In this document: in pieces, positions 8,914 through 51,317 of the stretch
How the letters are laid out: every line of letters begins with the position of its first letter
Position numbering within the stretch: position 1 is the stretch's first letter
Source of the DNA: a virus
Length of the DNA stretch: 64,000 nt
IMG/VR virus record: IMGVR_UViG_3300047472_000155
Span: 32,001-96,000 of that record
Direction: 5' to 3' (one strand)
Program-made: the position numbers and the translations under genes
Notes under the pieces: generated by a model
What the model was told of the DNA's origin: nothing
What the model saw: the letters and a program-made list of their open reading frames with translations, nothing else
Database searches by the model: none

Positions 8914-8942
8914 GTTTCATTATTTTGTTAAAACCTTATTAA

Positions 8943-9839: not shown

Positions 9840-9864
9840 GTTGCGTTCCTTCCTTACATTAGTA

Positions 9865-10135
9865 ATTATACCATTTTATCTTTCATTTGTCAAGCATTTT
9901 TTATTACTGATCTTTCTGAGCATTGAATGTTTCTCCTTAACATGTTACTATTATACCACTTTATAATGCCTTTGTCAAGCATTATTTTTAATATTCTGTT
10001 TTCAAGGAACAATATACTATAGTTATATAGGAAAGTCTTTGGACCGCTTGGTCTTTTGTAGCTCCTTGTAAATAAGGACTTTTATTTCTTTCCCTTAACT
10101 AACTATAGTATACCATTTTATCTTTCGTTTGTCAA
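9865..10135 (-). promoter_or_regulatory. Three tandem sigma-A promoters (9865-9893, 9950-9978, 10107-10135)
   Basis: TTGACA-N17-TATAAT/TATACT; two share the spacer GAAAGATAAAATGG. Confidence 0.8.
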
Positions 10136-10169
10136 CAGTTATTTTTATAGGACTCTAAAATCATCCCGA

Positions 10170-12488
10170 TCAAGCCATAAAGTCATTACTAATCCCATCG
10201 TTGCTGAAAAGCACACTGTCAACAGAAGCGCGAAAAGAAGCGTCATTTTCATATTCCTCCTCTATTATATATCTTAGATACTTTTCATTTCCAATGGTTC
10301 CATTTAATATGTCACACAGAAACGTATTGCGTCTAAGGTTCTCAAATTTCTTAAGTGCCTCATTTATTGTTCTTGCTTGACCCAAGATAACAAGAAATTC
10401 TTCTGGTCTAGTCCAAGCTACATACAACAAGTTAGCATTTAATTGATGTGTATGAGCCTTATCGCTAATAGAGATTACTCCTCTTGCCGCTGATCCTTGG
10501 CTCTTGTGCATTGTCATACACGCCGATAAAAGTAGTTTCGCAAGTTCAGAACTCTTGAACATCACAACATCATCTTCAAATTGTATTGTCAATACTCTAT
10601 TTTGAGTGTCAATGTCAATAATAGTTCCTGTATCTCCATTCATAATGTCAACCTCTTGCTCATACTGATTTAATACTCTATATGTGTTAACATTATTCAA
10701 CACTTTATCTCCTACACGAAGAAATATTTCATTCTTATCTTTTATCATTTTAACTTCACTTACAAAATCATCTTCTTTCGGATTGATGATCTCTTGAAGT
10801 ACATTATTAATATGATAAGTTCCTAAGTTTCCTTTCTTAGTGGGAGATAATACCATCAATCCATCAACTGTATATGTCTTAACCATTCTATTGAAGTAAT
10901 GCAAATACGCCTCTTCCATTTGACCTTGAGGACAAGATACGAACAAACAGTTGTTGCCAAACTTCTTTACTCCCATAAAGTCATCTTCAATAAATTTTTC
11001 ACCTTTACGTACCATTGTAACTACGTCAAGTATTCCACCTTCTTTTTGACGAAATACAATATCAAGCAATGTAATAGGGAACACTCCGCTTTGCTGACAG
11101 TCATACAAGAAGTTTCCTGCTGACACACTTGGAATTTGGAAGCTGTCTCCTAAAAACAGAATACGTACATTCGGATTTGTAAGCTTATAAAGAAGTATCT
11201 TTGCTAATTTGATATCACACATAGAACTTTCATCTACAATTACAAAGTCTTCATCTACAATCATCATCCCAAATTCATCTTCACTTGAACCTATGCCCAC
11301 TTTTTTATGAATAGTGAAAGCATCTTCCTTAGTATATTTCTTCAACACCTTAGAAGCTTTTCCTGTCGGTGCAAGTAACGCAAATGTCAATCCTAATTCT
11401 TTGGCAAGTTCAATTATCAACTTTTGCATCATACTTTTACCTGTACCCGCATAACCAATCAAGAAGTTTACAGCATTTTTCTTTAAATTCACAAACAAAC
11501 TTCTTTGTTGATGAGTTAATTTTATTTTGTACTTGTCTTCCATTCTCTTAATAAAGTCTTCGATATCGAAATTTAATTCTGCGGAATGTTCTTGTAACTT
11601 ATTCAATTTATATGACACTTGTACTTCTAATTTGAAATTACTTTCAAGAGCGAATTTGCCATCAATATCAACAATGTCTTCAACATTTGGCAATTCCTTG
11701 GTGATTAATTCCTTTTTAAGCTTAAGAAGCTTATAAGAATCCATTATTAACTTCTGTCTTAAGATATACGTGTCACCATTGCTTTCAACTTCTCTAATGG
11801 AATATCTTATCGCAGCATGAATTCTAAAAGGACTTTCCTCATCTACTCCCATTTGAAGTGCAATGTCATCCGCTGTTTTAAATCCTATTCCAGCAAAATC
11901 CGTCATGATGTATGGGTTCTCTCTAAGCTTTTCTGCTAACACTTTTGCCGTTGGGTATCTTCCCATTAACTTGTGAAGCATTGAGTAGTCTAACATAGGG
12001 AACTCATTGTGTAACTCAAGAAGTTCAAGATTTTTTAGAATTTTATCTCTAAATATTGGATAAGTAATTTCTCCAAATCCATATACCTTCTTATATTCAA
12101 AGGTATCATCTTTTAATAACTCAATGATATCATGCCCTTTGTATACGTTCATAATTGACTCAAATTGCAATGGAGTTACAAGCATCTTGATAAATCTTTC
12201 TTGTTGTTCTGGAGTCGATGGAATGTCTTGTTTCATTCTGTTGATTTTATAACTCCATCCCCACTTGGGATCATTTCTATCAAGTGTAGCTTCCATCATC
12301 CATATTGATCCAACATCCAATCTGTGTACAATACCATTTACCGATAAGTTGCCATACTTATTCACATGAACATCTTCTAGCGAATAGTCTTCATAATTTA
12401 CAAGGCTAACGCCATAACTTCCCCACCCAGAATCTTCTCTATATGCAATTTCACGATCAATTCTAACTTCAACCTCAATCTTACTCAT
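10170..12488 (-). CDS. recD2: RecD2-like SF1B helicase
   Basis: NPY..GIGFK.AD HhH; GYAGTGKS; APTGKA; DESSM; GD..QIPSV; MTMHKSQGS; LLYVAWTR; start at 12488 with GGAGG RBS. Confidence 0.93.
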   Translation of the reverse strand: MSKIEVEVRIDREIAYREDSGWGSYGVSLVNYEDYSLEDVHVNKYGNLSVNGIVHRLDVGSIWMMEATLDRNDPKWGWSYKINRMKQDIPSTPEQQERFIKMLVTPLQFESIMNVYKGHDIIELLKDDTFEYKKVYGFGEITYPIFRDKILKNLELLELHNEFPMLDYSMLHKLMGRYPTAKVLAEKLRENPYIMTDFAGIGFKTADDIALQMGVDEESPFRIHAAIRYSIREVESNGDTYILRQKLIMDSYKLLKLKKELITKELPNVEDIVDIDGKFALESNFKLEVQVSYKLNKLQEHSAELNFDIEDFIKRMEDKYKIKLTHQQRSLFVNLKKNAVNFLIGYAGTGKSMMQKLIIELAKELGLTFALLAPTGKASKVLKKYTKEDAFTIHKKVGIGSSEDEFGMMIVDEDFVIVDESSMCDIKLAKILLYKLTNPNVRILFLGDSFQIPSVSAGNFLYDCQQSGVFPITLLDIVFRQKEGGILDVVTMVRKGEKFIEDDFMGVKKFGNNCLFVSCPQGQMEEAYLHYFNRMVKTYTVDGLMVLSPTKKGNLGTYHINNVLQEIINPKEDDFVSEVKMIKDKNEIFLRVGDKVLNNVNTYRVLNQYEQEVDIMNGDTGTIIDIDTQNRVLTIQFEDDVVMFKSSELAKLLLSACMTMHKSQGSAARGVISISDKAHTHQLNANLLYVAWTRPEEFLVILGQARTINEALKKFENLRRNTFLCDILNGTIGNEKYLRYIIEEEYENDASFRASVDSVLFSNDGISNDFMA

Positions 12489-24828: not shown

Positions 24829-25494
24829 GTGATTGAAATGCATTTGCCACAACTTAAAGTGTTAGACCGTAAAACGATTATCAATGTACCAATTCTATGC
24901 GGCACAAAAGAATTTGACCAATATTCGGAAATTAACTCTCTTACGGCATCGGGTGAAACGTTTAAAAGTACTAGTTCAACATCAAGCAAATATAATCTTG
25001 CTTCGGTACACGCTTGGGTCAATATTGACCAATTACAAGCCGATGGAATTATTACTAAATTAGGTTTCGGAAGATGGGAAACCGAATTGTCGGAAAAGAA
25101 CGGTATACATTACACAATGAAAATTGATGAAACCGGAGAGGGAAAATATGTAAAAGGTAAGATCACTTACAATATTGTAGCGGTTGAAGTTAATGGTAAA
25201 AAATACACCGTCAAAAACGATCACAAATTGCCAAATGGCACGGAAATGCAAACAAGTTTCGAAATGACTTATAATGGTAAAAGTGCTAAAAATTCCACAT
25301 TGTTCGGATTCTTGCGCCGCATTATCTACAATGGATTACTTCAATTTGACAAGGTTGATCATCTTGAATTGATGGTAGCTAAACCTAAAACACCATCAAA
25401 ACCTAAAGCCAAACCTAAAGCGGCAAGCGTAGATATTCCAAAAGGCAAGGGTGCGGACAAACAAGAGAGTGCACAAAAAGCCGCAAATGAATGA
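24829..25494 (+). CDS. Hypothetical early protein with Lys/Pro/Ala-rich tail
   Basis: 221-aa ORF, GGAG RBS, first ORF after the large RNA. Confidence 0.75.
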   Translation: MIEMHLPQLKVLDRKTIINVPILCGTKEFDQYSEINSLTASGETFKSTSSTSSKYNLASVHAWVNIDQLQADGIITKLGFGRWETELSEKNGIHYTMKIDETGEGKYVKGKITYNIVAVEVNGKKYTVKNDHKLPNGTEMQTSFEMTYNGKSAKNSTLFGFLRRIIYNGLLQFDKVDHLELMVAKPKTPSKPKAKPKAASVDIPKGKGADKQESAQKAANE

Positions 25495-25607
25495 TGCGGC
25501 TTTTTGATTTTGAAACTAAATTTAAAAATGATAGTAGCTAACATTTAGTAAGCACTTAAAATGTTAGCTATTTTTGATTTTTAAATTAAAGAAAGGAATG
25601 GTAAAAT

Positions 25608-25784
25608 ATGGCAACTATGACAATGGAACAAAAGTATTACAACATAAAGCAAGAATTGAAAAATGCCAATAACAACCTTGATTTCAAGGCAATTAAACGA
25701 TTACAAAATAAACTTACCAAATGGCAACAAGCGTATGGAGCGTATGCACCTATAACACAAACAAACTTTCATAAATACGATTAA
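25608..25784 (+). CDS. Small hypothetical protein (58 aa, not in ORF track)
   Basis: AAGGA RBS; MATMTMEQKYYNIKQELK.. Confidence 0.6.
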   Translation: MATMTMEQKYYNIKQELKNANNNLDFKAIKRLQNKLTKWQQAYGAYAPITQTNFHKYD

Positions 25785-25789
25785 AAGGA

Positions 25790-26065
25790 ATGATTATAAT
25801 GATGATGGAAATTTTAGAAAAAGATAAGACAGAAGTAAGATCAGTAATTGGTAAGCGGCTACGTACAATGATTAAGACATTGCCACAACATGTAAAAGCA
25901 GATATTTTTAATATGATACATAACCAATCAACAAAGGATTATGCATGTTATGGTAAGTCATATGTTGAATTACAATTTGTCAATCATGAGTTATCAGCAA
26001 TCACATTAGATGCAATCAACATCAAGGATAACACATCCAAACGCTTCATGCTTTTAATATCATAA
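25790..26065 (+). CDS. Hypothetical protein
   Basis: ORF with AAGGA RBS. Confidence 0.6.
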   Translation: MIIMMMEILEKDKTEVRSVIGKRLRTMIKTLPQHVKADIFNMIHNQSTKDYACYGKSYVELQFVNHELSAITLDAINIKDNTSKRFMLLIS

Positions 26066-26173
26066 ATATCAGATAAAATTCAATTCAGTGAATGATAGTT
26101 CCCTATAACACACATAAGTATAGGGAACAATTGATTTATTGAATTACAAATAATACAAAAAGGATGATAAAAT

Positions 26174-26353
26174 ATGGAAAAATTGAATCATTATAGTTTT
26201 GAAGTTATTTTTATGGATGGAGAAGAAAAATGGATATCAAATAATAATGTAAGCATGAATGAGGCAATGATACAAATAATTAGAACAGAAGAAAAAGATA
26301 TCAGAAAAATAACAATAATGGAAATGAGTACTAATACTAATAAAGTAATTTGA
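26174..26353 (+). CDS. Small hypothetical protein (59 aa, not in ORF track)
   Basis: AAGGA RBS; MEKLNHYSFEVIFMDGEE.. Confidence 0.6.
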   Translation: MEKLNHYSFEVIFMDGEEKWISNNNVSMNEAMIQIIRTEEKDIRKITIMEMSTNTNKVI

Positions 26354-26430
26354 AAAGATAGGGAGATACAATATTTTGAATTGTATCTCTTAATTGTTTT
26401 CAAATTTAACACTTAAAGGGTGATAACACA

Positions 26431-26697
26431 ATGTCAAGTGTAAAACAAGAGAAATTCAAGGAAGTCAAGGCGCAACATGAGCTATTGAAAAAAATTAGCT
26501 TCACATCAACTCTGATAAAAGAAATTAATGATTCCTTGTTTGCTTCTAATCAAGCTTTTGTGGAATTTTCTGGTGACGATGTAAACTATCAGACAATGAT
26601 CAGCATTAAGTTAGTGGAACGTTTGTTCTTTGAACAAGGTGCAAACGTAGTGAGCATGTATGGATCAAAGAAATTCATTTTGTCAATAACAATATAA
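26431..26697 (+). CDS. Hypothetical protein
   Basis: 88-aa ORF with RBS. Confidence 0.65.
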   Translation: MSSVKQEKFKEVKAQHELLKKISFTSTLIKEINDSLFASNQAFVEFSGDDVNYQTMISIKLVERLFFEQGANVVSMYGSKKFILSITI

Positions 26698-26719
26698 CAC
26701 TGAGAAGGAGATGTAACAC

Positions 26720-27037
26720 ATGAGTCTATACGCTGTTACTTTAAGATTAAAACCTGTTCAAATTATTGAAGCATCAAACAGATCAGAAGCAATTGAAATT
26801 GTTCGCAGAAAATTTTTAAATGCCTTTATTACAAAAGTAGAAAAGACGCAAAAACAGAAACTTTGGTGTGACCGTATTGTTATTGTAACGCCAAATAACA
26901 CAAGGTATTTGCCTTTTGAAGTTACATATCATGAATATTGTGACGGAAATGCTCTTATCGAAGCTCAAATAAAATACGGTAAAATTGCTACATGTTCAAT
27001 CAAAAAACCAGTTGAAGCTCTGGCAAATGCAATATAA
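26720..27037 (+). CDS. Hypothetical protein
   Basis: 105-aa ORF, AAGGAG RBS. Confidence 0.65.
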   Translation: MSLYAVTLRLKPVQIIEASNRSEAIEIVRRKFLNAFITKVEKTQKQKLWCDRIVIVTPNNTRYLPFEVTYHEYCDGNALIEAQIKYGKIATCSIKKPVEALANAI

Positions 27038-27136
27038 AATGTTTTAGCAACCATATCAGTGATTTAAGTCACATCAGATTTAAATCACTTAATGGTTTTT
27101 AAAACCAGCAATAACACCATGACAGGAGGAACCCAC

Positions 27137-27349
27137 ATGAAAAAGAATCAAATCAGAAACTTATTTGATGTTGCTGTAGAAATGAGACTATCAGCCCAAT
27201 ATTTTGCGGTAATCCTATTCCAGTTAAACAAAGAATTAGCAGTATGGATCAGAAAACAATGGATTGTAGGACGTATAACACAATCGGAATACACGGACAG
27301 ATTGATGGATTATATAACATTGGAAGTTGAATTTATCGGCGTCAGTTAG
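27137..27349 (+). CDS. Hypothetical protein
   Basis: AGGAGG RBS before MKKNQ. Confidence 0.65.
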   Translation: MKKNQIRNLFDVAVEMRLSAQYFAVILFQLNKELAVWIRKQWIVGRITQSEYTDRLMDYITLEVEFIGVS

Positions 27350-27442
27350 TAAATGACAATGACATTAAGCATAACACGCCTATATATAAGAGGCTTAATG
27401 TTATTAGTGAGTTACTAACAAAACTAAAAAGGATGATTAAAT

Positions 27443-27733
27443 ATGGAAATCAAAAAGAATCATGATGTAATTAAAGCGTTTTTGATGGGTTATAGGGAAG
27501 GTCAGGCTAATCATCTTAAAATTGAAGAAAGAAAAGACCGAACAGCTTTATTGAACTTTGATACAGTAATTGCAGAAATATTTAGTCATGGAAATGAGAT
27601 TCACATCAATAAAAGCAATTATGGAAGAAGTACTACTCGGATTCAGAATATATTGATTAGAGAAGCCACGGAAGGTAAATGCAACGTTGTTTATCATTTC
27701 GATATTGACAAGCATAGCAAGATATTAGTTTGA
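27443..27733 (+). CDS. Hypothetical phage protein
   Basis: 96-aa ORF with RBS. Confidence 0.65.
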   Translation: MEIKKNHDVIKAFLMGYREGQANHLKIEERKDRTALLNFDTVIAEIFSHGNEIHINKSNYGRSTTRIQNILIREATEGKCNVVYHFDIDKHSKILV

Positions 27734-27960
27734 TGATCGACTCAGTAAATGATAGTCTTCTATATAACACCATATTATATAGAAGACAATTGATTCACTG
27801 AATCAATAAAAAATATACATAAAGGAGAGAATACCTATGACTCCAAGTAAACTTGCTGTATTAAAAAGTCAATGGGACAGAAAGCAACAAATGAAAGATA
27901 AAACTATTGTAGGCGCTCTGATTTTGAAATAGTTTTATAAACGAAAGGATGAATATAACA

Positions 27961-28293
27961 ATGAGCAATTACGTGGACAACAGACGGAAATACTTGGATA
28001 AAGTTGTAGAATTTCAGAATGAAGTTGAAAAGATCATGTTTGAAATTGATCTTATCAACTTGGAAAAAGTAAAATATATGAACATGAGAGATCAGACAAT
28101 TCACTTCCGTCTGACAATTTGCAAAGCATTTATTCATGAAGTATTAAGGTTGAATCAAATTCTTGAGCCTAAGATGAAAGAGCTTCAGGAAATGTGGTAC
28201 AAATACGATACAATGCGGTATCAACCGAATAAACAAGAGCGCCTCAGTGCAATGATTGAGGGGATGTATTCGCCAGAAAGAAATATTGGATAA
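27961..28293 (+). CDS. Hypothetical protein
   Basis: AAGGA RBS before MSNYVD. Confidence 0.65.
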   Translation: MSNYVDNRRKYLDKVVEFQNEVEKIMFEIDLINLEKVKYMNMRDQTIHFRLTICKAFIHEVLRLNQILEPKMKELQEMWYKYDTMRYQPNKQERLSAMIEGMYSPERNIG

Positions 28294-28388
28294 CTCAGTG
28301 ATTCATTAAGCCCTTTATATATTATAGAGGGCTTAAATGTTTTACTGAATAATACACTTTTTAAAGGAAAGAGAGAGGATGATTAAAT

Positions 28389-28790
28389 ATGTTATCGTTC
28401 ACTAGTAAAGTCGTAGGAAAAGCAATGATTGAGAAAGAGGTCACAGAAAAAGACATTGAAACAATTATCGTCAATGGTTTTGAAGGTGGCATTAAATATT
28501 GGGCAGGATTGGATGTATATTATTCTGAGGATGTATTCAATTGTCCCAAAGATGAACCGTGGTCAACATGGTGCACAAAGCTGTTGATTGAAGGTAAGTC
28601 AGTTAAATTGTATGATGTTGAAGGTACAGAAGATGACAACAATTGGATTTTAACACTAGACAAAATTATCAATGGATATAAATTAAATTGCATTAAGCGT
28701 CCACACGATTCAGATTTAGAAAATGGAGACGCTACGACAAGTGATTCAATCATTCAGTATGCATTGTTTAATGAAATTGTATTTGGATAA
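28389..28790 (+). CDS. Conserved phage hypothetical protein
   Basis: EGGIKYW..DA..DSIIQYALFNEIVFG motif. Confidence 0.7.
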   Translation: MLSFTSKVVGKAMIEKEVTEKDIETIIVNGFEGGIKYWAGLDVYYSEDVFNCPKDEPWSTWCTKLLIEGKSVKLYDVEGTEDDNNWILTLDKIINGYKLNCIKRPHDSDLENGDATTSDSIIQYALFNEIVFG

Positions 28791-28806
28791 GAGAGGATGA
28801 ATAACA

Positions 28807-29004
28807 GTGAATAAAAAAGCGGCAATCGCTATTTTTAAAGGTGAATATGCACAATTTTTAATTGACAAGAAGAACGATATTCCTGCTAAACAGCAAGCAT
28901 GGACAGAATTTGTTGATATGTTGTGCAAGAATGGAGACATAAAACAGAAACAATTTGATACATGGGACAATCCAAGCTTTGCAAAAGCCAAGAAGAGAGG
29001 GTGA
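28807..29004 (+). CDS. Small phage hypothetical protein
   Basis: AW..FVD.LCKNGDI..QF.TW.NP motif. Confidence 0.65.
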   Translation: MNKKAAIAIFKGEYAQFLIDKKNDIPAKQQAWTEFVDMLCKNGDIKQKQFDTWDNPSFAKAKKRG

Positions 29005-29010
29005 TAACAA

Positions 29011-29217
29011 ATGGGAATGATTCAGTCACATCATGAAATAAATGTTTCTTTAAATGGCAGGCATTTGTTTGCAACAGCAGAAAGAAGTTGTGTATCTACA
29101 AGTGAGTTGAATGAAATCTTAGAAGTGTTCATCAAGAAATTTCCAAAATCAGAAGGTTATAGCATATCTTATACAAAGGTAAAATGTGAAGGATCATCAA
29201 AAGAAGTAAGAAATTAA
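29011..29217 (+). CDS. Small phage hypothetical protein
   Basis: INVSLNGRHLFAT..KFP..EGY motif. Confidence 0.65.
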   Translation: MGMIQSHHEINVSLNGRHLFATAERSCVSTSELNEILEVFIKKFPKSEGYSISYTKVKCEGSSKEVRN

Positions 29218-29309
29218 TTCAGTAAATGATAGTTCTCTATATGACAATAGATTATATAGGGAACAATTGATTTATTGAAGTACATACTAATGAAAATGAG
29301 GCGGTTAAT

Positions 29310-29594
29310 ATGGCACACCTTGTAAGCAAGAATCAGTATGAAGACATCAAGAATCAGAAATATGTATTGGTAAATTTTGATTTTATTGGAAGAAGAACAA
29401 TGCATTACAGCGGATTGTCAATAATAGGGATAATGGAGGCAATGCAGAAACAGGTTAGTTTGAGTGTGGTATCTACAGTGTTTACAGAAGAAGAGATTAA
29501 AATGTTTAATATTGACTTGACAAAAAGAGATATTGAGTATTTCAGAAAGTTTAAACAAGATATAGAAAAACTGAAAAGAGTTTCGAATCAGTAA
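29310..29594 (+). CDS. Hypothetical protein
   Basis: 94-aa ORF, GAGG RBS. Confidence 0.6.
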   Translation: MAHLVSKNQYEDIKNQKYVLVNFDFIGRRTMHYSGLSIIGIMEAMQKQVSLSVVSTVFTEEEIKMFNIDLTKRDIEYFRKFKQDIEKLKRVSNQ

Positions 29595-29666
29595 ATGATA
29601 TCACCTTATATAATACATATTATGTAAGGTGCAATTGATTAACTGATTTAGAATAAAACAAAAGGG

Positions 29667-30713
29667 ATGATAAATATGTTATTTCAAACAATTACAAGAC
29701 CAGTTGTATACAAGAAATTCGGTGATGTCAATCCAATCGAACATGATGGAGGCTTTTACACAGAAACATCTAAAGGCGAATTTGAAATTATTCATATCAC
29801 ACCTGATGAAGAACATGAAAATTTCGGATGGTGGAATGTGGTATCTGTGGATACCACAGACGATTCTTGGATTGATGTGAAAAGCATTTGTTCATTTGCC
29901 GACATTGGTCCAGATAATGTTGATACTATTGATTTTGCACTTGCCTGCATTAATTATTATGGAATAGAAAATTTTGGTGGCAATCAAGCACAAGAATCAG
30001 CGATTAGTCATCGTGAAATTGAAAAATTATATAACACAATCGTATCAGAAAATTTCATTGAAGATGATGAAAATTTAAAACATCGTATTATCAATTATTT
30101 TGATGTATGGGGCAATTCTAAAGACGGTTATGAAGTTAATAACATGTGTGAAGAAGGAGTAATAACATTGCACATGAACGCAACGAATGAAGATGTTCTG
30201 AAAGCGCTTAAGAAATTCGGATTCTTCAAAAAACATGTGCGAATGAACATGGTTCAGTTTGATGACTCATTAATAGATATGTGGGAAATTAACGATTCAA
30301 AAGGCAAACCTATCTGTCGTGTGGAACCAATTATTGAAGAACCAGATTACAAACACACTATAACATATGATAGTGAGCATGGTGAACGTGTTCAGAAACA
30401 CTTTGAAACAAAGTCAGAAGTATATAAGTTTCTTGACACGTTGTCTAATGATTTAAATGATGTATGGACAGACTATAAAGAAGACGAATCCACAAAAGAG
30501 GTGTTACAAATGGAAAAGGATAATATCAAAATCGAAGGTCACAGAGGAACATGGTATATAATTGATGAAGCTAAATACAATGGTGAAGCGGTATATTTGC
30601 TTGAACATGAAGCATATGGAGATACCGCTGCTTGTTTAATTGTTCGTGGAGACCTATCCATTGTTTTAGATGATGTATGGAATGGGTTTGATGATTTAAA
30701 TGATTTAGAGTAG
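29667..30713 (+). CDS. Multi-domain polyvalent-type protein, C-terminal LPD18-like domain
   Basis: IKIEGHRGTWYIIDE..LLEHEAYGD.AACLIV..DDVWNGFDDL; central DVWGN.KDGYEVN motif. Confidence 0.65.
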   Translation: MINMLFQTITRPVVYKKFGDVNPIEHDGGFYTETSKGEFEIIHITPDEEHENFGWWNVVSVDTTDDSWIDVKSICSFADIGPDNVDTIDFALACINYYGIENFGGNQAQESAISHREIEKLYNTIVSENFIEDDENLKHRIINYFDVWGNSKDGYEVNNMCEEGVITLHMNATNEDVLKALKKFGFFKKHVRMNMVQFDDSLIDMWEINDSKGKPICRVEPIIEEPDYKHTITYDSEHGERVQKHFETKSEVYKFLDTLSNDLNDVWTDYKEDESTKEVLQMEKDNIKIEGHRGTWYIIDEAKYNGEAVYLLEHEAYGDTAACLIVRGDLSIVLDDVWNGFDDLNDLE

Positions 30714-30797
30714 TTTCAGAATTGATTATGCCTTATATAACAACATATTATATAAGGCATTAATGAGTTATTGAAACTCAAGAAAGGATGATACAAT

Positions 30798-31187
30798 ATG
30801 GATAACAAAACTAAACAGTTAATTTTTGAAGGTGCAGGATGGGAAATTGCTGAACATAATGGTGTAGGTAATTGTCGTATCAGAACAAGATTGACAAATA
30901 AAGAAGGTAAATTTATTTACTTAGAAATGTCAGGCAATGATATTTCTAATTCCAGACGCCACCCATACAAAAAGGAATTTCCGTTTATTGGATATGTTCA
31001 GCATTGCTTTGAAAGTGATGATAACGAACATAGTGAATACAGAAAACTAGAAAATGTTCCTTTTCATTATTCCAAAAGTTCCATTTTAAGTATGGTAAAT
31101 GAAAAATTGAATTGCGATTATACTGAATTGGTTGTTATCAATGACAATTCAGTGAGAGTACATGATACAAAAAAACCATTGTGTTAA
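30798..31187 (+). CDS. Hypothetical protein
   Basis: LIFEGAG..VGNCRIRT motif. Confidence 0.65.
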   Translation: MDNKTKQLIFEGAGWEIAEHNGVGNCRIRTRLTNKEGKFIYLEMSGNDISNSRRHPYKKEFPFIGYVQHCFESDDNEHSEYRKLENVPFHYSKSSILSMVNEKLNCDYTELVVINDNSVRVHDTKKPLC

Positions 31188-31222
31188 AATAAATTAAACT
31201 TAATAATAAGGGATGATATCAT

Positions 31223-31888
31223 ATGACAAAACAAAAGTTGGTACATGGAAACAAGAGAACGATGGAATATATAGGTGAAGATAATTTTAGCAATCCTATA
31301 TATAGATGTGTTGAAAATGACTCTTTGTGGAAAGATATAGCACTTGGAGAGAGCGAGATTCCACAATTGTATGATTGTGGAAATGAAATTGATGGCGATC
31401 CAGGATTTCCTATAAGACCTGAATTGGAATTACACTTTATTAGTAAGCCGCCATCAAAAGAAAATAAATTTAATTACATGATGCTCAGTAGAATGCAAAG
31501 CGATTGCGAATACTATCTTAATTATGGAAATCGTAGTAAAAACAGATTGTATTATGAAGATGAACAGAGACACATTGATGAAATGAGGAAATTGCATAAC
31601 GCATTTCCGGAAGACGGAAAGCCAGAATGGTTAACAATGGAGCAAATAGAGCAATATGAAGTGCAAATGGTTTCCGTAAAATGTCCATCCTGTGGTGAGT
31701 TATATAGTATATCAGAATGGAATAATAACACATTTGAGATTGTTTCGAACTTAAATAATTCAGACGATCCCATTACTTCATATCACAAAAGAAAAGAAGG
31801 AACGCTTTATCGCTGTCCCAATCAAAATTGTGAAGATGAAGTTATTACAGATTCAAATCTTTGTTTGAAGGTTCAAGATTCAGAATAA
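31223..31888 (+). CDS. LPD11-domain protein with C-terminal Zn ribbon
   Basis: YMMLSRMQSDCEYYL.YG..KPEWLTMEQI; CPSC..CPNQNC. Confidence 0.75.
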   Translation: MTKQKLVHGNKRTMEYIGEDNFSNPIYRCVENDSLWKDIALGESEIPQLYDCGNEIDGDPGFPIRPELELHFISKPPSKENKFNYMMLSRMQSDCEYYLNYGNRSKNRLYYEDEQRHIDEMRKLHNAFPEDGKPEWLTMEQIEQYEVQMVSVKCPSCGELYSISEWNNNTFEIVSNLNNSDDPITSYHKRKEGTLYRCPNQNCEDEVITDSNLCLKVQDSE

Positions 31889-31975
31889 TATACTATGCTC
31901 TTTACTACATATAGTAGAGGGCATAAATACTTTTCTGAATAAGAAAAGAATTCAATAACAAAAGGATGATATAAC

Positions 31976-32344
31976 ATGACAAACCAAACTAAAAAATCAT
32001 TTGAATTCAATGGAAATTTTCCTGTGGTCGTAGAAATTGGTGAAAATAAAAATTTTATTCAAAAGAAAGAAATGACAGAATTTGAGTTGCGTGGTGTATA
32101 TTCATTTCTTGATGAATATCTAACAGAATTCTATGATGACGGAGAGAAATATGATTCAGCAACGGATCTTGCTTTGGGATATGTTGGAGGTGTTATCGCT
32201 TGCACAACGCAAACAGGACTTCCGGGAGCGCCACAAGAAGTTAAAGATTATCAGCTTCAATATTTTGCACTCACAGAGAACAATGTCTTGCTTGCTGTTG
32301 TTGAAGACGAGAACAACAAAAGTTATTATATTCGTATTAACTAA
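31976..32344 (+). CDS. Hypothetical protein
   Basis: 122-aa ORF with RBS. Confidence 0.65.
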   Translation: MTNQTKKSFEFNGNFPVVVEIGENKNFIQKKEMTEFELRGVYSFLDEYLTEFYDDGEKYDSATDLALGYVGGVIACTTQTGLPGAPQEVKDYQLQYFALTENNVLLAVVEDENNKSYYIRIN

Positions 32345-32359
32345 AGGAGAGAATAAAAA

Positions 32360-32740
32360 ATGGAGACAACTAGTAAAAAATTTATATATCAAATTCAGAA
32401 TCATATTTATGATCGTTTGTCGGAAGACTTGACAACGGAATTAAGTGAACAGTTGAAAAATGCAATGGATGAATTCAATGATTGGTATTCTATACATGAA
32501 CGTCAGGTGATTCCAGATAAATATGATGCATTCAAAAAATGGCTATGGGGTATTCCATCTTGTTTGTCAGTAGAATATGTCTATTACAATATAATTGGCA
32601 CTCTTAAAGATTGGTTTTATGAGTGTGGAGAAAAGTATATTGAAACAGATGATCAAACGATAGATGCTGATCTTTACATGAACCTAATAACACGAGAATT
32701 TTTTAACATGTATAATAATCATTGCACTCAAGCAAAATAA
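32360..32740 (+). CDS. Hypothetical protein
   Basis: 126-aa ORF, AAGGAG RBS. Confidence 0.65.
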   Translation: METTSKKFIYQIQNHIYDRLSEDLTTELSEQLKNAMDEFNDWYSIHERQVIPDKYDAFKKWLWGIPSCLSVEYVYYNIIGTLKDWFYECGEKYIETDDQTIDADLYMNLITREFFNMYNNHCTQAK

Positions 32741-32834
32741 TCAGAACTTTATCATGTCCTTTACGTATAACACATAGAGGACATGAATACTTTTCTGACC
32801 GAAAAGTAAATTCATTCTAAAGGATTGATTTATA

Positions 32835-33197
32835 GTGAATAATACAATGAAAGAAATGAAAGAAATGTTCAGAAATAGAATTGCAAAACAAATGTCGGAC
32901 TCAGTTGAGAAAATAAGTCTTGGTCAATTGTCTCCTCAAGTTCAAGAAAGTTTATATACGCTGAGTAGTGCAATTAGGGCAGAATATGTGGTAAAATCAA
33001 TTGAATTTGAAATAATGATGTTAAATTCTGCTGGTTTTAATGAAAACAATTACAACATGTCTGATATTATGTGGGAAATGATTCAAAGAGAGAGTGATTT
33101 CCATGAACACAGAAAGAAGTTTGAAAGAGTCTCAGGTTTTAAGTATATGGAGTTTAATAATCAAGAGTTGTACAATTTAATGCATAATATTCAATAA
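32835..33197 (+). CDS. Hypothetical protein
   Basis: 120-aa ORF with RBS. Confidence 0.6.
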   Translation: MNNTMKEMKEMFRNRIAKQMSDSVEKISLGQLSPQVQESLYTLSSAIRAEYVVKSIEFEIMMLNSAGFNENNYNMSDIMWEMIQRESDFHEHRKKFERVSGFKYMEFNNQELYNLMHNIQ

Positions 33198-33210
33198 AAG
33201 GAGAGGAAAA

Positions 33211-33600
33211 ATGAAAAAAATAAATGTAATGTTACAAACAAGCTTTGGAAAAATTCAGATTGGAGAAATTAGCTTAAATCCAAGTATAATAGGAAGTGTT
33301 TCAGAAGAATATGTTGTAGAACAATGGCTTGAAAGTTTAAATGTAAATATCGAACAAATTGCCAGAGTGTGGACACAAGCAGAACATCGTGTTTATTTAT
33401 ATGGAATTCATGGCAAAGCAAAAGACAGTGAAATTTATGGTAATTATGAATTCTATTACGTTTCAAGCGGTATGTTATATGATAAGCAAGAGTACTTCTC
33501 AGAAATTGAAGTGGGAGAATATTTGGGAGATTTAACAACGCTTGATCAGATAACCGCATTAGATACTTTCTTTGTTAAGGTAAAAGAAGAATTACAATAA
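33211..33600 (+). CDS. Hypothetical protein
   Basis: 129-aa ORF with RBS. Confidence 0.65.
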   Translation: MKKINVMLQTSFGKIQIGEISLNPSIIGSVSEEYVVEQWLESLNVNIEQIARVWTQAEHRVYLYGIHGKAKDSEIYGNYEFYYVSSGMLYDKQEYFSEIEVGEYLGDLTTLDQITALDTFFVKVKEELQ

Positions 33601-33620
33601 TATAAAGGGGGTAGATAACA

Positions 33621-33965
33621 ATGAATAATAACAATCTTAAAAAAGTAATTTCAGAACTTGACAAAAGAACAGAATTCTTCAAAGATGCATTTGAAGAATA
33701 CAATATACCTCCAAAGATTAAAAATGCCTCTGAGTCCATTTGCATCAAGTTTAATATATATGGTATTTGTGATCCAATGTACATTGTAAATAGCATAGCT
33801 TATGAATTGGGTATAGGTGACGGATGCGGCAACTTCAATGACAATGAACCAGATTTATCAAAGCTTGATTATATTGCTGATAGACTTAAATTTTCGTATG
33901 GATGTAATATTCATGAAAAAGATACATTGCTAAGAATACTTGTAAAAAATATTGTTATGGAATAG
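33621..33965 (+). CDS. Hypothetical protein
   Basis: 114-aa ORF with RBS. Confidence 0.65.
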   Translation: MNNNNLKKVISELDKRTEFFKDAFEEYNIPPKIKNASESICIKFNIYGICDPMYIVNSIAYELGIGDGCGNFNDNEPDLSKLDYIADRLKFSYGCNIHEKDTLLRILVKNIVME

Positions 33966-34422
33966 TTCAGAATAATATACCATACCTTTTATATAACACT
34001 ATATAGAAGGTATAAATGCTCTTCTGAGCAAGAAAGGAGTGTATTACAATGACATCTAAGAAGTCAAAACAAAGAACACGTAATCAATTTACTATCTTAG
34101 CCAAATCAAAGGAGACTGACGAGGTTTATAAGAAAGTATTTTACAAATATATGGAAGTTGAAAAATGGGCAGAAAAACATAACATGGAAGTATTTAAGGT
34201 TGATATCAAGAAAGTAAAGGTGGAGGACTGACAAATGAATTATAAACAATACATTTACCATAACACATTGACTGATGAGGTTGTTGGCTTTAATGCAAAC
34301 AGCTTAAGACAATCTAGGATCAGAATGACAAGATTGAGCAGAGTTCATTTTGTTGGCACTAAGGCAATTGATTGGAAGTTTGTTAAAACAGATAGAAAAA
34401 TAAAGAAATGGGAGATGTCAAA

Positions 34423-34923
34423 ATGAGCAATCTTGAAGAAGCATTTTTAAAATTGATAAATTTGATCTTAAAAAAGGGAACGCATAACAAGAGTTCAGAA
34501 GTAGCATTAAAATGTATATATCTATTCTACAACAATACATCAGATTTAACATTGAAAAACGCTTTTGACTTTTATATTAAAAAAAGTAAAACAAATGAAA
34601 TGGACACACAAAAACTTGATGCTGCCATATCTTATGTAGAAGAAATGATAGACAATACTAAAAACATTAAAATGCTTAATGACAGAAATTTGCCAATAAT
34701 ATTGTTTGTGGCGAATCTTGCAATAGAAAAAGGAATGCCAAAACAAATATTTACATTGTATACGGAAGGATTTTTTGACTTGCTGAAATCAAATCAAATA
34801 TTTGATCAATTAGCGATATCATACATTCAGCTTTTAAATTTTGGTTCTATGAGGTGCGAAAATGTACAAAAAAGAATTCAAATATTAGCTGAAAATCATG
34901 GAATCGAATATATTTACAAATAA
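34423..34923 (+). CDS. Hypothetical protein resembling the C-terminal domain of the DUF262 protein at 44946
   Basis: ML..NLPII..A..AI.KG..F..GS..ENVQKRI aligns with MLKKVHVPII..AI.KDG..F..GSAKKDQVNTRL. Confidence 0.6.
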   Translation: MSNLEEAFLKLINLILKKGTHNKSSEVALKCIYLFYNNTSDLTLKNAFDFYIKKSKTNEMDTQKLDAAISYVEEMIDNTKNIKMLNDRNLPIILFVANLAIEKGMPKQIFTLYTEGFFDLLKSNQIFDQLAISYIQLLNFGSMRCENVQKRIQILAENHGIEYIYK

Positions 34924-35074
34924 TTCGGATTCACATACTATAACACTGACACGTACATATAACAAGTCGGTGTTATACATGTGACACTGAAATTATGCTT
35001 GCATAGTCGGTAAAATGTGGTATAATAGTAGATGGCACAAATAAAAGATAAAATATCAGAATGGAGGAATTAAC

Positions 35075-35407
35075 ATGGTCAACGTTGACAAAAACGGTTT
35101 ACCAGAATATTGTTACAGTATTCTTCTCTCTACAGGAGAGGTGATTATGATCCATCGTTATCAAGACGGATATTCACCTACTAGAGAAGACAACTTGCCA
35201 TGGTACGGGCAGGAAAATGCCGATGTTGCCAATGAAAAAATTGGTGTTTCAAAGGATCAAGAGTTGGCTATGAGTCATGGTTCAATGTTTGGATGGAATA
35301 CTATTGGAGCAAAACCAGAAACTTGGAAATTGAAGCTAACTAAAGAAGAAGTTGAAAATATTTTGGACAAAATTGATAAAGAAGAAGCGAATACAGACAT
35401 CGAATAA
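35075..35407 (+). CDS. Conserved mobile-element hypothetical protein
   Basis: LPEYCYS..STGE.I.I.R..N..IGVS..Q..AM..GSMFGW..GA.P; promoter TTGCAT..TATAAT upstream. Confidence 0.7.
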   Translation: MVNVDKNGLPEYCYSILLSTGEVIMIHRYQDGYSPTREDNLPWYGQENADVANEKIGVSKDQELAMSHGSMFGWNTIGAKPETWKLKLTKEEVENILDKIDKEEANTDIE

Positions 35408-35497
35408 TCATAGCATGATTATATCTTTCACACTATATATTAGTGAAAGGTATAAATGATTTTATGATTGGAAATCATGACATGAAAGGATGATACG

Positions 35498-35821
35498 ATG
35501 GAAATTTTAGTTATGTCTAATGGTCAAACTGAAATTATATCTGATGAAAAAGATTTGATTGAATTTATTGGAAGATTAATGGGATATGAAGTTAAGACAA
35601 TGATTGAAGCAATTGTTAAAAAGCCTGAAAAAGTTAGAGCTTACACAGATAGTGATTATGAATCATATGAAAGACAAGTAGAGGAAAATGTCAATGCTTT
35701 TGAAGAATTGGCTAATTTACTTGACACAGCATCATCGGAATTGAAAAAAGAAAGATTCAATAGGAAAGAATTAAAAAGGTTAATCGAAAGAATGGATAGT
35801 GTAGTTAGTAATCAGATATAA
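35498..35821 (+). CDS. Hypothetical protein
   Basis: 107-aa ORF with RBS. Confidence 0.65.
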   Translation: MEILVMSNGQTEIISDEKDLIEFIGRLMGYEVKTMIEAIVKKPEKVRAYTDSDYESYERQVEENVNAFEELANLLDTASSELKKERFNRKELKRLIERMDSVVSNQI

Positions 35822-38150: not shown

Positions 38151-38223
38151 TTTAATCTTTTTAAAAGGCTTGAAATGTCAAGCCTTTTATAAAGGAATTA
38201 AATCCTTATAACTTGAGAGGAGA

Positions 38224-42790: not shown

Positions 42791-43813
42791 GAGATGATAC
42801 CATGATTGACAGCGGACTAACTACAATTGAAAATGCAAGAAATTTATTTGAATCATTTTACAAAGAAGAGTCAAATATTCTTATAAAGATCAAATTAAAA
42901 TGTTGGATCAATCATTCGGAAAGCAGACATAAAAACAACAACTATCCTTTTTCATATGGAAATTATTCTATGTTCTTAAAGGAAATTGATATGTTGCTAC
43001 AAGTTAATTATGACATGATTGATTGTAGCGATATTGGCGGTAAAGAGTATGTCATTGAGTTTTTGAAAAATAAAATAAAATAAGGAGGTTAATTTTATGA
43101 AAATTAAGTTTCGTGAAATAAGTGTTAGAAGTGGTGATTATCACGTTTTGTTAGAAGCCTATAATGAAAATGGTGATCATGAATACGAGATATTCAACAG
43201 AACTTTGCCATTCCAAAACTTTCGAAGAGGTAGACTTATCAAGAAGTTAAAAAGAAAAATGGAACAGCTTTATTCATAAGGAGTGTAAGAATATGAATAT
43301 GTTGGCGATTATTATAATTTCAATGATAGCGTTGCTTATTGAACGCATCTCAATGAAAAATGACAATTTGCACTAATAAAATATAAAATAAAAATTATTT
43401 TACCAGTTTTTTGACATCCCCGACAACTTGATATATACTTAAATAAGTTAGATTAATCAAGGGGGATTTCACATGCCAAAAAAATTCTTTAAAATCGGAG
43501 TAAGTGAACTAATTGATGGTAAAAAGTATTATGGTCTGTTTATATCAAATAATGAAGAATTTGCATGTGATTACGAATCGTTTGTAAGAGGCTGGGAGCT
43601 TAGTAAATTTGAAAACTTGAGTAATGAAGCGAAAGAGGAATGGATAAACGAATTGAAGAAAGATAGTCAGGAAGCCACAGAAGTAAAGTGATTTGTGAAT
43701 ATATAGGGATAGATTTCTCTGTGGGAGAAGTTATTCCTATTATCTTCATAAGTATTTGATATAAAGGGACGTATGATAATGTACGTCCCTTTATATTTGA
43801 GGAGGACTGTTAA

Positions 43814-50513: not shown

Positions 50514-51317
50514 ATGAAAAGTCAAATTGAATTGAAGAAAGTACTTAATGAAACGTTGGAAACTTACAAACATAATAAGAATGTTTTGGAAAATGTCAAA
50601 ACACTGATGCAGAATTTTGGAATATTTAGAGGTGAAACACAAAAGATATTTACAGGAAAGACACTTTTTGAGGACATGAACAAGAGAATACTCATATTGA
50701 TTACTGATTCATTGCATCGAAGTACAAATGTTCACAACCTCAATCCTTACGGATACTTTTCTGATAAGGAGATCAAGGAAGCAAAAGCTCAAGAAATTGT
50801 AATTGAAACTGAAACAAGTGAATTTCCCATCACAATACATAATGCTATCAAAAAAGCCGAAGACACTTTTATCGCATTTGTCAAGGCGAAAGACATTGTT
50901 GCTCTTTACAATTCCAATCTCTTAGGCTATAATTATAGAATAAGTAATCAATACAAGATGGTACAAAAAAACGGCAAGTTGATTCAGACAATTGATATCA
51001 ATACCAAAGATGTAAAAGACATTGCACAAAAGATACTAAATAACGTTTACAACATGAATACAATCATTTTAAATGTTTTAGTAAATTCAAGCTTCTCTAC
51101 CGGAAAAAATGAAATTGAATATTCAAATGACACATTGACAATCAATGAAAGTACTGTAGAAATTATTAGTGGACTTCATGATTTGAGCGCTCTTGCTTAC
51201 ATTCTTGAAGACAACAAGAATATTGAATTGAAGGTTGAACTAATGGTCAAACACTATAACTCAGAACAAATGATAAACTTTTACAATGAACTAAATATAA
51301 AGGGTGGTGTAAACTAA
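50514..51317 (+). CDS. SPbeta YopQ-like protein (shorter)
   Basis: NP..YFS.KEIKEAK motif; translationally coupled to the YopR-like gene, as in SPbeta. Confidence 0.5.
   Translation: MKSQIELKKVLNETLETYKHNKNVLENVKTLMQNFGIFRGETQKIFTGKTLFEDMNKRILILITDSLHRSTNVHNLNPYGYFSDKEIKEAKAQEIVIETETSEFPITIHNAIKKAEDTFIAFVKAKDIVALYNSNLLGYNYRISNQYKMVQKNGKLIQTIDINTKDVKDIAQKILNNVYNMNTIILNVLVNSSFSTGKNEIEYSNDTLTINESTVEIISGLHDLSALAYILEDNKNIELKVELMVKHYNSEQMINFYNELNIKGGVN

Follow-up and report, generated by a model that had tools for sequence, protein, structure and literature searches.

A hairpin-punctuated array of small genes

The stretch of DNA analysed here (64,000 nucleotides, "the window") comes from a large uncultured Bacillus-type phage, the host of which is likewise uncultured. 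It carries an array of 26 small ORFs on the + strand (25608..35821), almost all without known function and none encoding a protein with a recognisable RNA-binding or nuclease domain. A family of hairpins divides the array into 14 units of 1-3 tightly packed genes each: a hairpin follows 14 of the 26 array genes, and another follows the first operon gene upstream of the array (24829-25494), an orphan ended by a canonical intrinsic terminator (25474..25514, + strand, 12-bp GC-rich stem and T-tract) that directly precedes the first family hairpin. Simple consensus scans of the window found no strong promoter within the array before 35.0 kb. A sigma-A-type promoter candidate, TTGCAT-16-TGGTATAAT with an extended -10, lies at 34999..35026 on the + strand and is 93% conserved in a relative; TGNTATAAT occurs at two sites only on the + strand of the window, 23325 and 35018, both with an extended -10. 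On these scans, the array is apparently a promoter-free long operon.

Minimum-free-energy folding was applied to every intergenic gap and to the 15 elements separately, and a covariance model, R1, was built on 13 copies. An earlier note on this DNA had proposed about 15 hairpins of conserved fold and variable sequence, and R1 bears this out, with 12 strong matches (45.7-70.6 bits) and three weaker ones in 25518-35470. All are intergenic, on the + strand and 60-72 nt long. Searching the rest of the 166,838-bp genome gave a single further match, which is marginal (26 bits, E 0.012, - strand, outside the window); the custom covariance model that the note had suggested as a check recovers the family in the window and next to nothing elsewhere.

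The first hairpin (25518..25588; 49.4 bits, z -6.3) is a variant with an A/T-rich outer stem. Subgroup A, in which the helix is nearly unbroken, includes hairpin 2 (26082..26145; 67.7 bits), with a paired GATA/AATTG middle, as well as 27739..27804 (70.6 bits, z -6.1), 29216..29281 (70.1 bits; the left border of an extra unit described below) and 29585..29649 (66.2 bits), the 5' arm of which holds the stop codon. The hairpin at 28292..28351 (62.5 bits, z -8.3) is of intermediate type, and a further family hairpin lies at 30712..30777 (65 bits). Subgroup B comprises 31877..31941 (55.6 bits), where a large internal loop (ATAC/AAATAC) is present and the 5' arm reaches back into the final codons of the preceding gene, 32738..32801 (52.2 bits), 33964..34030 (55 bits) and 35405..35470 (62.7 bits), in which the outer stem is compensatorily altered to ATCATA/TATGAT. 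A diverged hairpin at 34922..34993 (45.7 bits, z -6.7) is the last before the internal promoter candidate. The three weaker matches are a weak member at 26346..26407 (29.3 bits, z -5.8), a diverged member with a long apical region at 27343..27417 (34.3 bits) and, at 27040..27106 (20.7 bits, E 0.1, z -8.6), either a marginal member or an unrelated stable hairpin.

The elements occupy a fixed place between genes, as the earlier note had stated. Relative to the first base of its element, the stop codon is found at -26 to +9, and at -8 to +9 in 13 of the 15. Downstream, the hairpin ends 5-23 nt before the Shine-Dalgarno sequence in the 11 elements where a scan found one, and 17-37 nt before the start codon in all but two of the 15, namely 34922, where the promoter candidate intervenes, and the weak 27040, the 3' arm of which lies over the called start codon. 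Most hairpins are followed by a conserved leader consisting of an A-rich spacer, AAAGGATGAT, 5-7 nt and ATG.

Fold, strand preference and covariation

Folded alone, the 15 elements have minimum free energies of -20 to -28 kcal/mol, and 14 of them reach z-scores of -5.5 to -9.2 against dinucleotide shuffles, the remaining one (27343) having a z of -2.4 in the frame used. The full two-tier helix comprises 22-28 pairs. Its conserved outer stem, AATTCAG/CTGAATT, has the upstream stop codon inside or abutting it; the middle zone is paired in subgroup A and forms an internal loop in subgroup B; and the inner stem (12-14 bp) is variable in sequence and covarying. All motifs quoted in the earlier note were found, namely the TCAG/CTGA outer stem, the GATA/AATTG and ATAC/AATAC middle zones, inner stems ending in TATA, and loops rich in A and C and poor in G.

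Covariation was assessed on 26 copies from two phages. Paired cells amount to 80%, versus 66% in shuffles and about 40% in slid registers, and 23 of 28 pairs have changed on both sides; the observed values were reached by none of 500 shuffles, and the compensatory inner-stem changes noticed earlier are thus upheld. The outer stem is near-invariant (T-A in 26/26 copies, C-G in 22/26), with compensation of CAG/CTG to ATA/TAT or CAT/ATG in window 35405 and in 3877 of L006, the relative introduced below. The strand assignment also held: of 30 elements, 27 fold more stably as the + strand than as the - strand (mean difference -4.2 kcal/mol), G-U pairs number 69 on the + strand versus 34 on the - strand and are fixed at particular columns among the 26 copies, and a mirror-strand model scores lower by about 30 bits.

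Related phages and gene exchange

We compared the array with those of two relatives. G001 (helicase 73% identical; coordinates given on L006) has about 15 family members at the same location, including orthologs of hairpins 26082 (2403), 26346 (711-772), 27343 (1672), 29585 (4572), 30712 (5826), 31877 (6569), 32738 (7046), 33964 (7825) and 35405 (9275). Over nine ortholog pairs, 27 of 37 changed pairs are still paired, 12 via a double change; 32738 and L006 7046 differ by four double compensatory changes. Paired positions change at a rate of 11.8% versus 22.5% for unpaired ones, and fold energies are kept. The more distant G002 (helicase 54%) has a different module at the same place, in which a hairpin of only 6-13 bp is followed by a conserved single-stranded GTGTYGCG box; this box occurs in 21 copies in the G002 array, on the + strand throughout, and nowhere else.

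About half of the array genes are common to the window and G001, in partly shuffled order, and many homology blocks have an end 0-8 nt away from a hairpin in at least one of the two genomes. Between the two phages, hairpin-plus-leader modules share 85-93% identity, even when flanked by unrelated genes: module 26083-26170 (hairpin 2 and leader) is 90% identical to its G001 counterpart with unrelated flanking genes, and module 30710-30793 (hairpin 30712 and leader) 93% identical with unrelated genes downstream, versus 67-79% identity for orthologous genes. Judged from these alignments, the hairpins therefore lie where related phages swapped genes, and the modules also mark mosaic joints. At 29216-29585 the window contains an additional unit of hairpin and gene, and the corresponding place in G001 holds one hairpin; the indel junction falls within a 12-nt stretch common to both arms, at the 5' arm position. 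In G001, several single-gene units stand in a row, with hairpins on either side of each. The earlier suggestion of shufflable units, with relatives' breakpoints at the hairpins, is thus borne out in part: many breakpoints do lie there, but synteny also breaks at at least 8 tabulated window junctions without a hairpin, and hairpins are therefore not obligatory cassette ends.

These observations raise the question of whether the main role of the modules is at the DNA level, as homologous-recombination joints by which promoter-less units are inserted, deleted and reshuffled, the RNA role being secondary. Such joints would be a promoter-less counterpart of the promoter-early stem-loop (PeSL) cassettes of T4-type phages, which provide a precedent (PMC2839356, PMC4122927). 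We consider this unlikely, for the primary role and for the PeSL parallel alike, since the breaks at hairpin-free junctions make hairpins unnecessary for exchange, and since sequence identity alone would suffice for a pure recombination joint, which has no use for covariation of the helix or for sense-strand G-U pairs. The two phages are, moreover, too diverged for any event to be dated or oriented.

Proposed processing of the message and comparison with known systems

The explanation that we favour, with confidence at about the midpoint, is that the elements are intercistronic mRNA processing and stabilising sites, with host RNase III as the probable cutter. We infer that promoters upstream of about 24.1 kb would drive the 10-kb array as a single long message, with one further promoter inside it at 35.0 kb. 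The message would fold into the two-tier hairpin of 22-28 pairs with the upstream stop codon in its base, and would most likely be cut there by the host double-strand-specific RNase III; if T7 and SP82 are a guide, the cut would fall close to the internal loop, on its 3' side. No phage-encoded RNase III was found, and the host enzyme would therefore be used. The upstream cistron would keep a 3' hairpin cap that blocks 3' exonucleases, while the downstream cistron would retain a short leader, its 5' end guarded by the ribosome site; stability and translation could thereby be set per unit of 1-3 genes, independently of neighbouring units. At the SP82-type sites of Bacillus phages, Hue et al. 1995 reportedly described a purine-rich, ribosome-site-like stabiliser after the cut, a further likeness to the layout seen here. 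Because the modules are repeated stretches of about 100 nt with 75-90% identity, they could double as homologous-recombination footholds at unit borders.

RNase III cleavage was also the leading explanation of the earlier note, and helix size, sense-strand G-U pairs, the placement between stop codon and ribosome site, the apparent lack of promoters along the operon and the layout of T7 R0.5 and R1.3 all speak for it. The G002 hairpins, however, are too short for RNase III cutting, so that, should the two modules serve the same purpose, RNase III cleavage cannot be it. Furthermore, RNase III needs no particular sequence, and the near-invariant outer stem could therefore reflect common descent or a sequence-specific partner instead.

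The latter would be the case if the elements were operators recognised by a sequence-specific protein of the phage, either an RNA-binding protein or an endonuclease, that reads the outer stem and middle zone and times the translation or decay of each unit, each phage lineage having its own protein-motif pair. Both parts of this proposal seem to us improbable. It would account for conservation of the outer stem and middle zone well past what RNase III requires, for the different box in the G002 array, and for the orphan 24829-25494, which is present in G001, where family hairpins occur, and missing from G002, where they do not. This co-occurrence is, however, based on three genomes, the array proteins offer no candidate domain, and duplication and exchange explain the conservation among copies equally well.

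Similarly doubtful is the idea that the elements are leaky intrinsic terminators or pause sites, through which expression would fall off stepwise from one end of the operon to the other, and no less so its extension, in which an antitermination system assembled at the structured leader and the first gene overrides them. PeSL stem-loops are reported to be effective terminators (PMC2839356), and a true terminator and a long leader lie ahead of the array. The earlier note had seen no U-tracts, which holds after the whole hairpin, where no family member has one and the sequence is A-rich; after the inner stem alone, 5-6 copies pass a lax criterion (at least 5 T in 8 nt, at most 2 nt from the stem), and weak termination or pausing may occur at these moderately T-rich sites. 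Against a terminator role, the bases right after the inner stem are AAAT or CAAT without a U-run, whereas the real terminators of this genome have 4-8 consecutive T, and the conserved outer stem, which forms only about 25 nt later, would be pointless for termination. Two looser hairpins listed in the earlier note (38151 and 43693-43751) proved not to be R1 members and are ordinary terminators with T-tracts.

The earlier note's alternative, in which the elements are folded ssDNA sites resembling attC and the tyrosine recombinase encoded at 15342 serves them in the manner of an integron, is judged very improbable: like attC arrays, the window has promoter-less genes in one orientation split by imperfect hairpins of similar length (60-72 nt) that are conserved at the ends, unpaired in the middle and variable at the top, and it encodes a tyrosine recombinase, but the elements contain no RYYYAAC/GTTRRRY core sites, fold better on the coding rather than the bottom strand and come with no attI, the sole interpretable indel joins in the 5' arm whereas attC exchange takes place at the 3' core, and the recombinase, 10 kb away, has a 47%-identical counterpart in G002, where the hairpins are missing. 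This recombinase is a generic phage integrase, touching only one Xer/integron model (35 bits versus a 220-bit cut-off) and matching no other integron-integrase model. A second recombinase, encoded at 51317 and MrpR-like in fold, suggests that the phage is temperate in the manner of SPbeta, and such a lifestyle is enough to account for an integrase.

Returning to mRNA processing, we compared the elements with other repeated phage signals. PeSL cassettes are likewise repeated composites of stem-loop and Shine-Dalgarno sequence between small accessory genes of a hyperplastic region, where indels and replacements in relatives end (PMC2839356, PMC4122927); unlike the present elements, they have a strong sigma-70 promoter and a terminating stem-loop, and here it is the helix itself that covaries on the sense strand. 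The start-associated sequences of Cluster K mycobacteriophages (SAS, and extended SAS or ESAS) resemble the present leader in being a conserved ribosome-site box before many start codons in one orientation, about half of them preceded by an inverted repeat, with function unknown (PMC3203893). In ESAS, however, the two arms are sequence-conserved repeats of 17 bp on either side of a 4-13-bp spacer (PMC3203893); they form no long helix around a variable, covarying core, and they belong to other groups of phages and hosts. In SPO1, every host-takeover gene comes with a promoter, a terminator and a GC-rich leader hairpin of its own, unlike the promoter-free array described here, and an R1 search of SPO1 gave nothing convincing (best 22 bits, E 0.09). 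A further parallel is offered by the B. subtilis RNase III sites in SP82/SPO1 early mRNA (Panganiban and Whiteley 1983; Mitra and Bechhofer 1994; via PMC1935012 and PMC4838370), which share with our elements the setting in a Bacillus-type phage early mRNA and the internal loops in the stems.

A close parallel in layout is with the T7 early RNase III signals (R0.3, R0.5, R1, R1.1 and R1.3), a family of two-tier hairpins that separate the genes along an extended early message, each with a lower stem, internal loop and upper stem over about 55-70 nt and a stop codon in or beside the lower stem. When we folded T7 R0.5 and R1.3, the stop codon lay in a 9-bp lower stem, followed by an internal loop and a 10-12-bp upper stem, and the hairpin ended about 15 nt ahead of the next ribosome site. 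In T7, bubble-containing stems undergo a single downstream-side cut by E. coli RNase III, and the internal-loop stems of SP82 receive a single cut on that side from the B. subtilis enzyme (PMC1935012). The two families differ in that T7 conserves the upper stem and loop flank and varies the lower stem, the opposite of what is seen here, in the almost continuous helix of subgroup A, and in the lack of any sequence similarity; the host here is Gram-positive, and cleavage is putative. On this reading, the hairpins of this array would be a new sequence family within a type of signal that is already known.

The hairpin family and its limits

For the source virus record (166,838 bp in IMG/VR, about 33% G+C, with a tRNA cluster), a search of 50,697 phage records gave no close relative at the DNA level. 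Several proteins place the phage among the large phages of Bacillota: its UvrD-type helicase is about 43% identical to helicases of SPO1-like phages, its RecD-like helicase is 39-44% identical to proteins of Geobacillus virus E3 and of the ~160-kb Bacillus anthracis siphoviruses, and a protein encoded at 51317-52291 has the repressor fold of MrpR, the SPbeta master repressor. This last protein is tyrosine-recombinase-like (PF22822/PF22823) and suggests a temperate, SPbeta-like lifestyle. The array studied here (25.5-35.5 kb) consists of 26 small + strand ORFs, almost none with a recognisable domain, bordered by a gene-poor control region on one side and by the replication helicase at 35835 on the other. 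Hairpins split it into 14 units of one to three closely packed genes. The first gene of the operon (24829-25494, 221 aa) matches nothing in Pfam or PHROG; it is present at 63% identity in G001, a relative phage with the same hairpins, and missing from G002, a more distant relative without them. With only three homologues among 5.8 billion proteins, it was set aside as a candidate specificity factor.

All intergenic gaps were folded. With the exception of 31185-31225 (41 nt), every gap of more than about 55 nt holds a strong hairpin, and the short gaps contain none. The 15 elements have fold energies of -20 to -28 kcal/mol, with z-scores against dinucleotide shuffles of -5.5 to -9.2 in 14 of them. 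A covariance model (R1), which the earlier note had called for, was built from 13 copies (mean column identity 56%) on a hand-drawn structure of 23 pairs. It recovers all 15 elements on the + strand at 25518-35470, of which 12 score 45.7-70.6 bits and the other three only 34, 29 and 21 bits; the rest of the 166,838-bp genome yields a single marginal match outside the window (26 bits, E 0.012, - strand). In the window, only tRNAs exceed the Rfam gathering scores and no Rfam family matches the elements; at E up to 1, the region 25400-35600 gives just two chance-level Rfam matches, both on the - strand. Two “looser” hairpins that had been listed with the others (38151-38202 and 43693-43751) are not members, but ordinary intrinsic terminators with T-tracts (38151-38202 and 43750-43790).

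Exact hairpin patterns have one other source in IMG/VR, namely G001, a 170.6-kb phage with a 73% identical helicase. There, R1 has about 15 matches, all on the + strand within 9 kb upstream of the helicase gene and none elsewhere. When IMG/VR, contigs from metagenomes and 185,579 species genomes were scanned for such patterns, no further true members emerged. R1 found nothing in SPO1, the SPO1 terminal region, G002 (IMGVR_UViG_3300038443_000757, helicase 54% identical) or Psychrobacillus phage Perkons, nor in 19 metagenome and two genome pattern matches, and searching metagenome contigs by protein, guided by an alignment of the helicase, was equally without result. The closest relatives by protein have helicases 87% (a 25-kb Logan contig) and 56% identical. 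The family is real: about 30 copies in two phages of a sharply bounded, strand-specific, covarying RNA element.

In the minimum-free-energy folds of 28 of 30 copies, the elements form 22-29 pairs (17 and 20 in the remaining two). The outer stem, most often AATTCAG(T/A) with (A/T)CTGAATT, has 7-10 pairs. It holds or adjoins the upstream stop codon, in keeping with the earlier note, which had each hairpin start at or just after a stop; the stop lies -26 to +9 from the element's first base (-8 to +9 in 13 of 15), and three elements have a 5' arm that itself forms the end of the reading frame. In subgroup A (mostly 25.5-30.8 kb), the middle zone is paired, with a fixed G-U pair, a bulged G and only 1-2 mismatches, while subgroup B (mostly 31.9-35.5 kb) has an internal loop there, with 7-9 nt on the 5' side and 8-9 nt on the 3' side. 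The subgroups are likewise grouped by position in G001 (coordinate frame L006), and this clustering suggests spread through local duplication. The inner stem has 12-14 pairs of freely variable sequence, usually ends in TATA and is closed by an A- and C-rich apical loop of 3-11 nt. An A-rich spacer follows the hairpin and, in most copies, a conserved leader, AAAGGATGAT, then 5-7 nt and ATG. Hairpin and start codon are only 17-37 nt apart, a distance occupied by the ribosome site. The hairpins end shortly upstream of that site, as had been stated; the Shine-Dalgarno sequence lies 5-23 nt from the hairpin end (11 elements in which our scan found one). Among genes that no hairpin precedes, ribosome sites differ, and each gene begins 3-35 nt after the stop before it.

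In 9 of 29 elements (window 27739, 30712, 31877 and 32738; L006 4572, 6569, 7046, 7825 and 8519), the 3' arm can form an alternative hairpin with itself or with the spacer (4-8 bp, -2 to -9 kcal/mol), which after a cut would head the 5' end of the downstream RNA. Because so few elements have it, it is not a family feature, and a refolding switch was rejected.

Selection acts on the fold. Across 26 copies from the two phages, 80% of the cells of a 28-pair consensus are paired, compared to 66% with shuffled partners and about 40% in slid registers. Double changes occur at 23 of the 28 pairs, and none of 500 shuffles equalled the observed values, which bears out the compensatory changes reported from inspection. 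Even the outer stem covaries, U-A becoming A-U between subgroups, and CAG/CTG becoming ATA/TAT in the window element at 35405 and CAT/ATG in L006 3877. Among nine orthologous hairpin pairs from the window and G001, 180 of 217 pairs are identical; of the 37 changed, 27 remain paired, 12 through double substitution. The rate of change is 11.8% at paired versus 22.5% at unpaired positions, and the energy of the fold is maintained. For 27 of 30 elements, the + strand gives a more stable fold than the complement (4.2 kcal/mol on average), and R1 scores about 30 bits lower on the mirror strand. The sense-strand bias of G-T pairs that had been noticed holds as well, with 69 G-U pairs on the + strand versus 34. 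Since the fold is specific to the sense strand, a double-stranded DNA palindrome is excluded as the selected object; the result speaks for RNA or, in formal terms, for a single strand of DNA.

A proposed role in processing between cistrons

No consensus promoter or terminator is found within 25.6-34.9 kb, and the array is therefore probably transcribed as a single message. The earlier note had favoured cleavage of that message by RNase III, and the elements share two structural features with its substrates: an imperfect RNA helix some two turns long (at least 20 bp) and, clearest in subgroup B, a bubble between lower and upper stem of the single-cut type. Their position is intergenic. Their layout is that of the T7 sites R0.5 and R1.3, which we also folded. 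In R0.5, a 9-bp lower stem that contains the gene 0.4 stop codon is separated by an internal loop from an upper stem of 10-12 bp, and the 3' end is about 15 nt upstream of the next ribosome site. E. coli RNase III cleaves the bubble stems of T7 at one position only, on the downstream side, and the B. subtilis enzyme does likewise with the internal-loop stems of SP82 (PMC1935012). Given the T7-like layout and the single-cut precedent, we read the elements as intercistronic processing and stabilising sites. An RNA-level role of some kind, in processing or stability, is probable. That they are sites of RNase III specifically is plausible and about as likely as not. Two points count against it: the sequence of the outer stem is conserved well past what the enzyme needs, and the hairpins of the module that G002 has at the same place are too short for it.

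After cleavage, the upstream cistron would end in a 3' hairpin that protects it, and the downstream cistron would begin with a short leader in which a strong ribosome site lies close to the new 5' end. SP82 RNA work in B. subtilis reportedly indicates that a ribosome site near the 5' end guards against 5' decay. An RNase III gene is absent from the phage, so the cutting enzyme would have to be that of the host. Ribosomes that end the upstream gene must melt the helix, whose outer stem contains the stop codon; we speculate that cutting might therefore be tied to upstream translation.

Probable gene exchange at the hairpins and other candidate classes

About half of the array genes have G001 orthologs (58-80% amino-acid identity), the others being unique to each phage, and gene order is partly shuffled between the two. 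The hairpin-plus-leader modules are 85-93% identical between the phages, compared to 67-79% for orthologous genes. The modules at 26083-26170 and 30710-30793 are 90% and 93% identical although their downstream genes are unrelated (noise level in Smith-Waterman alignment), and the genes upstream of 26083-26170 are non-orthologous too. Elsewhere, the window has an extra unit (the hairpin 29216 core and gene 29310) where G001 has one hairpin, the inner stem of which matches window 29585 while its first bases run on from the upstream gene; this mixed match puts the junction within 12 nt common to both 5' arms. In the window, 29667-30713 is one ORF (348 aa, with a C-terminal LPD18 domain). Its G001 ortholog (L006 4666-5635) is two ORFs of 219 and 71 aa, with about 200 nt of the middle replaced and a stop codon, a hairpin of the family, a ribosome site and a start codon between them.

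The earlier note had suggested comparing related phages for gain and loss breakpoints at the hairpins. In the comparison with a single, rather distant relative, G001, many nucleotide homology blocks end 0-8 nt from a hairpin, but synteny also breaks at eight or more junctions without one. Early stem-loops of the PeSL type in T4-type phages have a similar role at gene exchange borders. Recombination at the modules is likely a by-product and possibly a selected benefit; we do not treat it as the primary function. A wider reading, which we think unlikely, is that the module is a portable, promoter-less expression adaptor. On the RNA side, each unit inserted into one long early message would be insulated by processing, by protection of its ends and by a strong ribosome site of its own. 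On the DNA side, the conserved arms would permit capture, loss and reordering of units by homologous exchange. Modules would be lineage-specific, each possibly with its own early protein.

The attC-like cassette array that had been offered as the alternative to RNase III is not supported. The elements end in AATTCAG and CTGAATT, not in the attC cores RYYYAAC/GTTRRRY; it is the coding strand, not the bottom strand, that folds better (27 of 30, with twice as many G-T pairs); and no IntI with attI is adjacent. Nor does the tyrosine recombinase at 15342 qualify as the cassette recombinase: it is a generic integrase 10 kb from the hairpins, scores 35 bits against the Xer/integron model (cut-off 220 bits), matches no other integron-integrase model, and is also kept in G002, which is without hairpins.

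The elements do not have the form of intrinsic terminators, a GC-rich stem with a U-tract directly behind it. Behind the inner stem stands AAAT or CAAT, and behind the outer one the sequence is A-rich, so that the earlier remark on missing U-tracts stands; a lax terminator scan passes just 5-6 inner stems. The genome's true terminators at 25474, 38151 and 43750 differ in carrying T runs. Promoter cassettes were rejected because the elements have no consensus promoter or extended -10; a strong sigma-70-type promoter inside the motif, as in PeSLs, is likewise absent. Only two + strand extended -10 sites occur in the whole window, at 23325 and 35018. The second of these belongs to a strong candidate promoter, TTGCAT-16-TGGTATAAT, at 34999-35026, directly 3' of hairpin 34922. 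This block is 93% identical in G001 (L006 9200-9288), where it adjoins the next hairpin with no gene 35075 in between. SPBRE, the operator of the SPbeta repressor MrpR, is a 15-bp promoter-region motif and not a 65-nt covarying hairpin.

Comparison with other phage gene arrays

At the same place, G002 has a different module: a variable 6-13-bp GC-rich hairpin, a conserved GTGTYGCG...ACCACTAAA box, AAAGGATGGATGA and a start codon. The 21 copies of the box are all on the + strand and in the small-gene array that surrounds the helicase gene (1-11300 of the G002 record, L009), and the box is found nowhere else in the 169 kb of that record; the reversed control gave zero matches. SPO1 and Psychrobacillus phage Perkons have promoter/terminator pairs between early genes. 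The different module in G002 suggests that punctuation is a general, evolvable feature of such arrays.

In long phage early operons, one message must supply many unrelated small proteins, and in the T7 early operon RNase III sites are the solution. To our knowledge, documented cases are otherwise few, and SP82 is nearly the only one among phages of Gram-positive bacteria. The family described here is large, sharply bounded and rich in covariation. As its elements are tied to a fixed leader, they form a well-defined set of substrates for studying recognition by a Bacillus-type RNase III or another nuclease, and they could be natural insulator parts for multi-gene constructs in Bacillota. Modules that stay 90-93% identical amid replaced genes also bear on how accessory gene arrays are rebuilt; were the adaptor reading true, the array would run an integron-like cassette economy by homologous exchange. 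On the reading that we prefer, processing of the message between cistrons, the family is new in sequence and, by analogy, would belong to the known functional class of phage intercistronic processing hairpins, its cleavage being a prediction from that likeness.
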